From Eledone cirrhosa (taxonomy: Eukaryota), in NCBI GenBank assembly GCA_964016885.1, contig OZ024740.1, positions 100,254,001 to 100,318,000 on the forward strand: DNA of 64,000 nt. The letters run 5' to 3'. The translations under genes and the position numbers were made by a program. The notes beneath the pieces were generated by a model. That model was not told the DNA's origin and ran no database searches. It saw only the letters and a list, made by a program, of their open reading frames with translations. Shown here piece by piece: positions 60,506 to 62,893 of the stretch (positions are counted from its first letter, which is position 1; each line of letters opens with the position of its first letter).

Positions 60506-60860
60506 GATGTATATATATATGTATATATATATGTATATATATATGTATATATATATATGTATAAATATATATATATGTATTTATATGTAAATATATATAT
60601 AAATATATATATATATATGCATATATATATATATATATATATATATATATATATATATATATATATATAAAAGAAGTTAATATCCCCACAGGTACTAAGT
60701 ACCCCTGGAAATATATAGGGTGTCTATGATACAAGGGTTGTTCCATGGTATTAATTTGACATTCCAGAACTATGAAATTGAGATAAGCAGAACAGGCGAG
60801 ATTCAAACAATTTTTTTAAATAAATAAAAAAATATAATTTAAATATTTACCTATTCCAAT

Positions 60861-60944
60861 TGCTTTTACCGAACGGTTTCACTTCACAAAAGATTGGAGA
60901 TCCCTACGGACTTCCAATGGAAAAGTTTAGATCATCAGAAAGCA
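60861..60944 (-). ncRNA. Type I hammerhead (family C)
   Basis: Minus strand TGCTTT-CTGATGA-T...T-GAA-ACCGTTCGGT-A-AAAGCA. Confidence 0.82.
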
Positions 60945-61394
60945 TTTTCCTTTCCTAGGACAAAAAGTCCCAGGAACGGCAAAATATATCGCCATCTGCC
61001 AGCTACCACAGGATTGAATGGGGCCGAAAATTGGACCTATGCGTGAACCACCCGTAGTAGAAACAGAAGTAAACATAGACGTATTGTCTACCTCGCCACT
61101 AAAAATAGTAGCTAATAAAACAACGGATTTGTTCTCTACATAACGGAGAATATTAAAAGAAGTTAATGTCCCCACAGCTACTAAGTACCCCTGGAAATAT
61201 ATAGGGTGTCTATGATACAATGGTTGTTCTATGGTATTAATTTGACATACCAGAACTATAAAATTGAGATAAGCGGAGCAAGCAAAATTCAAACAATTTT
61301 TTTAAATAAATTAAAAAATATAATTTAAATATTTACCTATTCCATTTGCTTTTACCGAACGGTTTCACTTCACAAAAGATTGGAGGAAAGAAAA

Positions 61395-61478
61395 TGTTTT
61401 CTGATGATCTAAACTTTTCCATTGGAAGTCCCTAGGGATCTCCAATCTTTTGTGAAGTGAAACCGTTCGGTAAAAGCA
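61395..61478 (+). ncRNA. Type I hammerhead (family C, inverted copy)
   Basis: TGTTTT-CTGATGA-T-CT..ATTGGAAGTCCCTAGGGATCTCCAAT..AG-T-GAA-ACCGTTCGGT-A-AAAGCA. Confidence 0.82.
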
Positions 61479-62893
61479 ATTGGAATAGGTAAATATTTAA
61501 ATGATATTGTTTTATTTATTTTAAAAAATTGTTTGAATCTTGCTTTCTCCGCTTATCTCAATATAATATATATATATATATATATATATATATATATATA
61601 TATATATATATATATATATATATATATATATATATATATATATATATAGAGAGAGAGAGAGAGAGAGAGAGAGAGAGATGGCGTAGAATAACAATACAAC
61701 AAGAGGAACATAATAGTACCACTGACAATGTTGCAGATGTGCAACGAAAGAACCTTATTAGACTATATATATGTGTTTATATCTATATTATATCTGTATT
61801 TTTGACCGTTGTTCACTCAAGGTAAACATTGAGAACCGAATGAATTAACTATGGAGATATAAAAGATACAGAAGCGAAAACCAACCAAACAGTGAGTGTG
61901 TTCTGTTATTATTTCTGGCAATATTATTACAACAATATGATCCTCCCCAAGTATAACTATATATATATATATATATATATATATATATATATATATATAT
62001 ATATATATATATATATATATATCATCATCATCATCATCATCATCGTTTAAAGCCCAATTTCAATGCTAGCACGAGCAGGAAGGGCTGACCTTTTGGGAAA
62101 GAATCAAATCAGAAGACCATGTTTGTTCATCCAAGGCTGATTTTGGCCTTGTTTCCACAGTTGGGTGTCCTTCCTAACGCCAAACACACACTCACACACA
62201 CTTCAGCATTTAGTCACAGAAGTTAAGCAATATCAACAAATATTACATAACTGAGCACATCTTCAGAGAGTAATCACCTACCCTGAAATGGAAACGTTTG
62301 TCTAAATGTCTCATACAAATACAGTCTATGCCATCACTTAGTGTAGCTGTTTCAGACTGGAAATGACATATGACCTCGCCCAAAGAAGTGGTCAGTCAAA
62401 AACTGATCATTGTGAGGGAAAATGCTGGAATGAAATTTAAAAAATGAATACAAGCCAAAGTTTTCAACCAGGTTAATTATGTAAAGATCAAAGACAGAGT
62501 TGCCAAAAAATATATAAATTAAACGAAAATAAAAATAAAAACGTTCACCTTATATTCAAAAGCAAGTCCATCACATGAGAGAAAAAAGAAATATTGATTT
62601 ATGAAGTTAGTCGATGAATGAACATGAAGATGGGGTTGTATTATTACTTGATTGAATTAATTTCTCTTATGTGTATTTCCATAATATCAGCACGTTTTTG
62701 CTATGTAATTGTAGAATAGACTGAAATGGCTTCTTTAGACAGTATTTTGCATGTAGTCAAAGTTTACACAACAAAAAATGATAAAGTTGCAGATATGGTT
62801 AAAGCATGAGGAAAGAGGTCTTGAGATCTAGCAGTAATATTTTTTCTCTTGCATGTCAAATTTGGAGGAATATTCTATATGTATATATTATAT

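Follow-up and report, generated by a model that had tools for sequence, protein, structure and literature searches.

Animal non-LTR retrozymes have been argued to be non-autonomous Penelope-like elements (bioRxiv 10.64898/2026.07.22.740005), and those of mussels are expressed as heterogeneous circles, according to the available portions of these reports (PMC7229834). EN+ Penelope-like elements are described, in the parts of the sources covered, as leaving partial tandem copies accompanied by an inverted 5'-truncated copy, a tail of 30-40 bp at one end and a bias towards (TA)n targets (PMC8557442, PMC3846280). For a Penelope-like element of the anole, the accessible text reports a tail bounded by two internal start sites, both DNA strands being cut and extended at AT-rich targets, a protein predicted to dimerise, and the use of unprocessed RNA in vitro, with ribozyme cleavage not needed (PMC11167929).

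The locus described here lies at 60669-61562 of a 64-kb window (the whole stretch of DNA analysed, on contig C1) in a 3.0-Gb genome. Its sequence indicates a dispersed copy of a 486-nt non-coding repeat with a predicted self-cutting RNA motif, placed between (TA)n runs.

Architecture of the locus

Positions within the repeat are given as q coordinates, which read 60669-61154 on the minus strand (q1 is 61154 and q486 is 60669; Table 1). Read in the sense of unit 1, the order is (TA)n, inverted arm q199-378, q256-486, q1-486, (TA)n. The 486-nt period proposed in the initial annotation was recovered by aligning 60668-60899 with 61154-61385 (13 mismatches in 232). Two further details of that description also held: unit 2 is interrupted within stem II, and the inverted copy begins just upstream of the hammerhead, about 12 nt before stem I. 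The break falls at 61385, in the 3' strand of the stem, and a 2-nt microhomology joins unit 2 to the inverted arm. What unit 2 retains of the hammerhead is its 3' half, with GAAA, stem III, GUA at 61353 and the 3' strand of stem I. Unit 1 has no ATG ORF longer than 49 aa within it, the RT and GIY-YIG reading frame is absent from the unit, and a search of the repeat unit for a tRNA head found none. Upstream of the element, window positions 57172-59905 (-) hold a broken LINE with endonuclease (PF03372) and RT (PF00078) frames; related copies recur in the window, and it is unrelated to the retrozyme footprint.

Table 1. Features of the locus and its target sites, in window coordinates.
Feature	Positions	Strand	Basis or remark
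(TA)n microsatellite, left target site at A end	60510..60669	.	sequence inspection
Unit 1, complete 486-nt monomer (q1-486)	60669..61154	-	3' end is fixed end A
Tail between the two fixed 3' ends, ~105 nt, two hairpins	60669..60776	-	hairpins conserved in sister family
Type I hammerhead motif of unit 1	60861..60944	-	CUGAUGA 60938-60932; predicted cut 60867/60866
Unit 2, 5'-truncated tandem copy (q256-486)	61155..61385	-	alignment to unit 1
Head-to-head arm junction, 2-nt microhomology	61384..61385	.	arms meet 5' to 5'
Inverted arm (q199-378)	61384..61562	+	3' end is fixed end B
Hammerhead motif of inverted arm, complete core	61395..61478	+	predicted cut after 61472
(AT)n microsatellite, right target site at B end	61561..61648	.	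sequence inspection

Hammerhead motifs and predicted folding

Two complete motifs lie on opposite strands, that of unit 1 on the minus strand and that of the inverted arm on the plus strand. Both contain CUGAUGA, GAAA, an A15.1-U16.1 pair, GUA and a 6-bp stem I (with one G.U in the inverted copy), together with a 51-nt stem II that has a U.U pair at its base, and a stem III that is short and nearly palindromic (ACCG-UU-CGGU). The U10.1-U11.1 closure is a published hammerhead variant, as given in the accessible part of PMC3088659. No Rfam family of any kind reached its gathering score in the window, and at E up to 10 the hammerhead models again gave nothing, with hairpin and repeat matches alone appearing. 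The hammerhead fold lies about 5 kcal/mol above the predicted minimum, and the predicted probability of stem I is 0.02 for the isolated motif and 0.005 in the circle; the active hammerhead fold is a minor conformer in these predictions. The sequence cores are complete and the predicted fold is disfavoured, so that the description of "two intact ribozymes" can be retained for sequence only.

Across 164 family segments the core is complete in 129, a count partly selected by the search patterns, and the U.U closure is present in 140. Stem III reads ACCG-U-CGGU in 69 of these segments, the perfect palindrome ACCG-AU-CGGU in 36 and ACCG-UU-CGGU in 27. Because a one-base stem III loop cannot close in a monomer, the family motifs are likely of the dimer type, as in the available text of PMC4209133. 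On the minus strand of this locus, the catalytic half of unit 1 could pair with the intact substrate half of unit 2; an RNA reading through the opposite-strand arms is predicted instead to fold into one long hairpin of 415 nt (-189.6 kcal/mol). Changes are rarer in the hammerhead core (1.7% vs 3.1% elsewhere), a difference confounded by the search patterns and not used as evidence here.

Folded as a circle and compared with shuffled sequences, the 486-nt unit gave a z of -6.4 on the sense (hammerhead) strand vs -2.3 on the antisense strand. Five other copies gave -3.9 to -8.1 in sense; antisense values were -1.6 to -4.1, and those of three control stretches -0.6 to -1.7. The sense-strand range across all six copies (z -3.9 to -8.1) is that of a highly self-paired monomer. 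A suspected long-range helix (q157-167 with q354-367) was supported by neither fold, and two helices from the alignment fold (q90-98/q268-275 and q157-165/q211-219) were set aside, showing one-sided changes only and being absent from the ensemble of unit 1.

A 468-nt sister family, with about 74% identity in the 3' half, retains the hammerhead core, has a stem I pair swapped to G-C and pairs the base of stem II fully; the hammerhead stems covary across the two families. The sister family (2364 candidates) is younger, with within-locus differences mostly of 1-3%, and has the same two ends, a tail near 103 nt and arrays of up to 3.4 units (L299). Other hammerhead-like cores occur in the window at 33278(-)/33625(+), 34849(-)/34882(+), 31474(-), 54165(+), 32523(-), 32059(+), 39631(-) and 40376(+), the last three being family A of the initial annotation; some form inverted pairs, and several have U on both sides of stem II.

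Copy number and ends of the family

A DNA search for the 486-nt family returned 89 matches from 40 scored of 2109 candidates, and exact sequence patterns gave 41, 67, 198 and 206 matches, with 0 for every reversed control. These matches are not due to chance, and the family has at least hundreds of copies. It is also abundant in three contig sets of one sample, among which no piece spanned this locus or its junction. The family sample used below comprised 210 loci, 162 of them distinct; they were selected by the searches, come largely from contigs C1-C3 and do not represent the family at random.

The copies are dispersed 0.1- to 2.1-mers flanked by (TA)n. Their 3' ends fall at two fixed sites about 105 nt apart in 208 of 222 arms, with 94 at q472-486 (end A) and 114 at q373-385 (end B); the remaining 14 end elsewhere. 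The 162 loci divide into 98 with direct copies only, 62 with an inverted arm and 2 that are complex. The 1.5-mer with an inversion noted for this locus is real; being the usual form of the family and matching the footprint published for Penelope-like elements, it is not special to this site. The inverted loci pair an A end with a B end in 55 of 62 cases; one is B/B, none is A/A, and six have one other end. In 47 of the 55 A/B loci the A arm continues past the tail, so that both arms can cover identical unit positions. Two loci about 20 kb apart on C1 (L110 and L140) both have their 5' end at q157 and are preceded by the same flank, which probably reflects a local duplication.

Penelope-like elements and the proposed insertion mechanism

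GIY-YIG sequences are numerous in this genome (150 scored of 10,597 candidates). The five long frames tested all encode an RT domain, and three of them also match GIY-YIG. Long uninterrupted Penelope-like frames are present at L243:775-4062, L241:2309-5122 and L242:1488-4019 (1096, 938 and 844 codons), so some autonomous families may still be capable of providing the enzyme. The autonomous RT+GIY-YIG elements end at two sites against (TA)n, and at four inverted autonomous loci (L250, L269, L255 and L272) the two sides carry opposite ends. The tails of the autonomous elements, read by eye, measure 45-65 nt, and the U.U closure recurs in the hammerhead of one autonomous Penelope-like family. Among the 70 GIY-YIG loci compared, out of the 150 scored, none gave a sequence match between the 486-nt family and an autonomous element, so it is the footprint that points to a Penelope-like partner.

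L242 was considered as that partner and rejected: its match is a copy of the sister retrozyme family (L242:5490-6418; C5, 100722000 region) inserted in the terminal TA run of the element. Read by eye, the 3' regions of three autonomous Penelope-like families (L241, L247 and L257) contain A(A)ACCGGUA about 85-115 nt before end B, a palindrome that resembles stem III of the 486-nt family, and the upstream core of L241 and L257 looks like a U3-A8 variant.

We consider it likely that the locus is a non-LTR retrozyme inserted by a Penelope-like RT/GIY-YIG enzyme, with cDNA primed from both ends of a (TA)n cut at two fixed RNA sites. This reading is based on the two fixed 3' ends against (TA)n, the variable 5' ends, the A/B pairing of inverted loci, the strand-specific folding of the unit and the candidate motif, whose stems covary in the sister family. 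Under such a mechanism one DNA end would have been primed at site A and copied for 717 nt, past the unit junction and two cut sites, and the other would have been primed at site B, about 105 nt upstream of A, and copied for about 180 nt; a 2-nt microhomology would then have linked the two cDNAs at their 5' ends. The tail argues against this reading, as its ~105 nt exceed both the published 30-40 nt and the 45-65 nt of the elements here; so do the missing sequence match to an autonomous element among the 70 loci and the minor place of the hammerhead fold in the predictions.

Origin of the differences among the three segments

The initial annotation held that the two direct repeats differ from each other more than the inverted copy differs from unit 1, and suggested a heterogeneous multimer template or two templates. 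Pairwise alignment contradicted the first statement: the two units show 13 differences over 232 positions (5.6%), and the inverted arm and unit 1 show 11 over 176 (6.3%). Over the 123 nt that the three segments have in common, the differences number 7 (units 1 and 2), 8 (unit 1 and inverted arm) and 7 (unit 2 and inverted arm), with 4, 3 and 4 changes unique to unit 1, unit 2 and the inverted arm, respectively. Raw divergence is therefore equal among the segments, an outcome that the initial annotation itself had named as refuting and that weakens the case for a heterogeneous template, but an asymmetry persists at sites with two common family alleles. There, units 1 and 2 disagree in 6 of 17 cases, and the inverted arm disagrees with unit 1 in 2 of 23 and with unit 2 in 2 of 10; to this extent the earlier suggestion survives.

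Among 65 within-locus pairs, units 1 and 2 show the highest discordance at these variant sites (nominal P 0.00018; ~0.02 when corrected for ~111 pairs). In these statistics, q1-6, q308-346 and q479-486 were masked, L013 was dropped because two different families lie side by side there, and L201 and the present locus were kept out of the baseline. Variant sites are discordant in 89 of 1656 comparisons within loci (5.4%) vs 37% between loci, which implies that both arms normally copy one variant; the median segment difference is likewise 3.8% within a locus, for tandem and inverted arms alike, vs 8.8% between loci. One circle read twice, one multimer, two sibling RNAs or one dominant source at a time would all fit the usual agreement of the arms. 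Discordance at 6 of 17 sites, set against the normal within-locus level of about 5%, makes either a mixed template or later conversion likely at this locus.

We lean towards a long arm that read two RNA variants, by template change or from a mixed dimer. A two-class fit, in which 13% of the 65 pairs (54 loci) fall into a class with 19% discordance, beats a single class (2dLL 17.2), and the variant sites at issue are spread from q296 to q420 and do not form one patch. The equal raw divergence speaks against a mixed template, as do the ordinary rare-allele loads of the segments (1.1-2.5%, median 1.8%) and the lack of siblings with the allele combinations of unit 1, three patterns of which match only this locus in the assembly. 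Rare changes show no ADAR-type skew (A>G 188 vs T>C 238, P 0.52). Segments of different family variants were also seen at L157, L179, L154, L091 and L156.

An alternative, to which we assign somewhat less than an even chance, is that one homogeneous template was copied and that the differences arose later, by ordinary mutation and short gene-conversion patches from other copies. The same equality of raw divergence and uniqueness of the unit 1 combinations count in its favour. Furthermore, four of the unit 1 differences lie patch-like within 10 nt (60789-60798), the inverted arm is intermediate between units 1 and 2, and variant sites across the family show all allele combinations, which implies that recurrence or exchange is common. 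The 6 of 17 discordant sites against a 5.4% baseline, their spread and the two-class fit are what this history explains less well.

Circular or linear template

As to the form of the RNA, we favour, more weakly than the insertion mechanism and with only a slight preference over an uncut multimer, a circular monomer produced by dimer-type hammerhead cleavage as the usual template. At 22 of 162 loci there are two cut sites in the same orientation. The 5' ends provide a weak hint of self-cleavage: 15 of 208 fall at q283-294 around the predicted cut (scan P 0.028), with 1 exactly at q289 and 6 upstream.

The competing view keeps the same mobilisation but has every copy made from an uncut linear transcript, a 1.x- to 2-mer of a tandem source locus, with no circle and with the hammerhead a weak or protein-assisted remnant; we rate it as plausible though distinctly short of even. 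The 5' ends, while spread over the unit, cluster in 42 of 208 cases at q402-441 (window 60714-60753), in short A arms, long A arms and B arms alike, as the start of a linear transcript would. This hot spot could mark a transcription start, an RT stop or TA microhomology, and the last of these may account for part of the cluster. The longest arm, moreover, measures only 1045 nt; the active hammerhead fold is predicted to be disfavoured; and a source with two diverged units would directly explain the discordance between units 1 and 2. By analogy, the anole element, which works without ribozyme cleavage and uses unprocessed RNA in vitro, also counts against a circle, within what the available text of PMC11167929 reports. 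So does the behaviour of Xenopus retrozymes, 8 of 9 dimers of which did not cleave according to the accessible part of bioRxiv 10.64898/2026.07.22.740005. Linear copying, however, cannot without jumps regenerate the loci with two same-orientation cut sites or the 3.4 units of the sister family, and the discordant tandem pairs lack the one common pattern expected among daughters of a single mixed source. The strong, strand-specific folding of the whole unit likewise speaks against a purely linear template.

A more elaborate version of the circular template is a two-RNA, two-RT machine, in which a protein dimer would hold circles paired via the palindromic stem III, prime one at A and one at B from the two ends of a break, and be able to change circles while rolling. 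We regard this as speculative and rather unlikely. If it were true, this locus and about 1 in 8 within-locus pairs would record a change of circle between variants, and retrozymes would recombine during reverse transcription much as retroviruses do.

Other origins

It is improbable that the copies are mere pLTR stubs, left by 3'-end truncation of an autonomous Penelope-like element that escaped notice. The unit is indeed laid out like a pLTR in its 3' half, with the hammerhead followed by an AT-rich stretch, end B, the tail and end A. Upstream of q1, however, the sampled loci run into either unrelated flank or the end of the unit itself, full 486-nt units occur in tandem, and the Penelope-locus peptide matches in the flanks of the 162 loci point, by eye, to no frame that extends into the unit.

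On the surface, inverted arms within TA runs look like Tc1/mariner-type insertions, but a DNA-level repeat (foldback, MITE-like or satellite) with arms from repair or recombination and an incidental hammerhead match is very improbable, given that the outer ends are unequal and fixed and the inner ends variable, that the A/B end rule contradicts it, that 98 of 162 loci have no inverted arm, that the hammerhead stems covary across families, and that RT-encoding elements show the same footprint.

Comparison with described elements

LINE-1 twin priming, in which two DNA ends prime cDNA to give a head-to-head inversion, shares two-end priming and the head-to-head inversion with the 486-nt family. 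Unlike twin priming, the second start is fixed here, the A arm passes the tail (47 of 55) and both arms copy the same positions. A plant LTR retrozyme was ruled out, as the motif is type I and not type III and there is no LTR pair.

The retrozyme-type reading of the initial annotation stands: the locus has a 486-nt non-coding tandem unit with a type I core and three stems. Like the animal non-LTR retrozymes in the available text of PMC7229834 and bioRxiv 10.64898/2026.07.22.740005, the family is built of tandem units that are non-coding, low in GC and self-paired and contain a type I hammerhead, and it co-occurs with Penelope-like elements. Its length is within the 51-972 bp range of the latter report and exceeds the 170-400 nt retrozyme RNAs of the former. 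In contrast to the retrozymes described there, the family occurs as dispersed copies and not as long arrays, and the accessible portions of the two reports describe neither inverted arms nor two fixed ends (the word "inverted" occurs 0 times in the former and once in the latter). The partly available bioRxiv report calls elements active when they carry two consecutive complete motifs; the present locus, with one complete motif and one half on the same strand, would not count as active under that rule, and other loci, such as L025, L027 and L062, carry two consecutive complete ones. The literature searches listed no description of the 486-nt family or of the A/B pairing rule in retrozymes.

The hammerhead resembles the dimer-type Penelope hammerheads (PMC4209133) and U10.1-U11.1 variants (PMC3088659), as their accessible texts present them, in being type I with a short palindromic stem III, a long stem II and the U.U closure; it departs from them in its 51-nt stem II with internal loops, the lack of a canonical G10.1-C11.1 pair and scores below every Rfam hammerhead model. 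With EN+ Penelope-like elements, as covered in the parts of the sources cited above, the family shares the tandem copy plus inverted 5'-truncated copy, the tail at one end, the (TA)n target, a hammerhead near the end and two starts. The family differs from them in having no reading frame, a tail of ~105 vs 30-40 nt and no match to the sampled autonomous families.

The family could be of use as a clean record of Penelope-type integration, with a short non-coding RNA, two fixed starts and strict A/B pairing, in which subfamily markers identify the RNA that served each arm as template. Through this family the two in vitro start sites of the anole element are connected with opposite sides of a single break, and its 486-nt RNA is a substrate for testing a circular against a linear template and one RNA against two. 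The segment at 60669-61562 belongs to a known class and is in itself an ordinary locus, mostly explained by known biology: it appears to behave like a Penelope-like insertion, and its family has, judged by sequence, the features of an animal non-LTR retrozyme.
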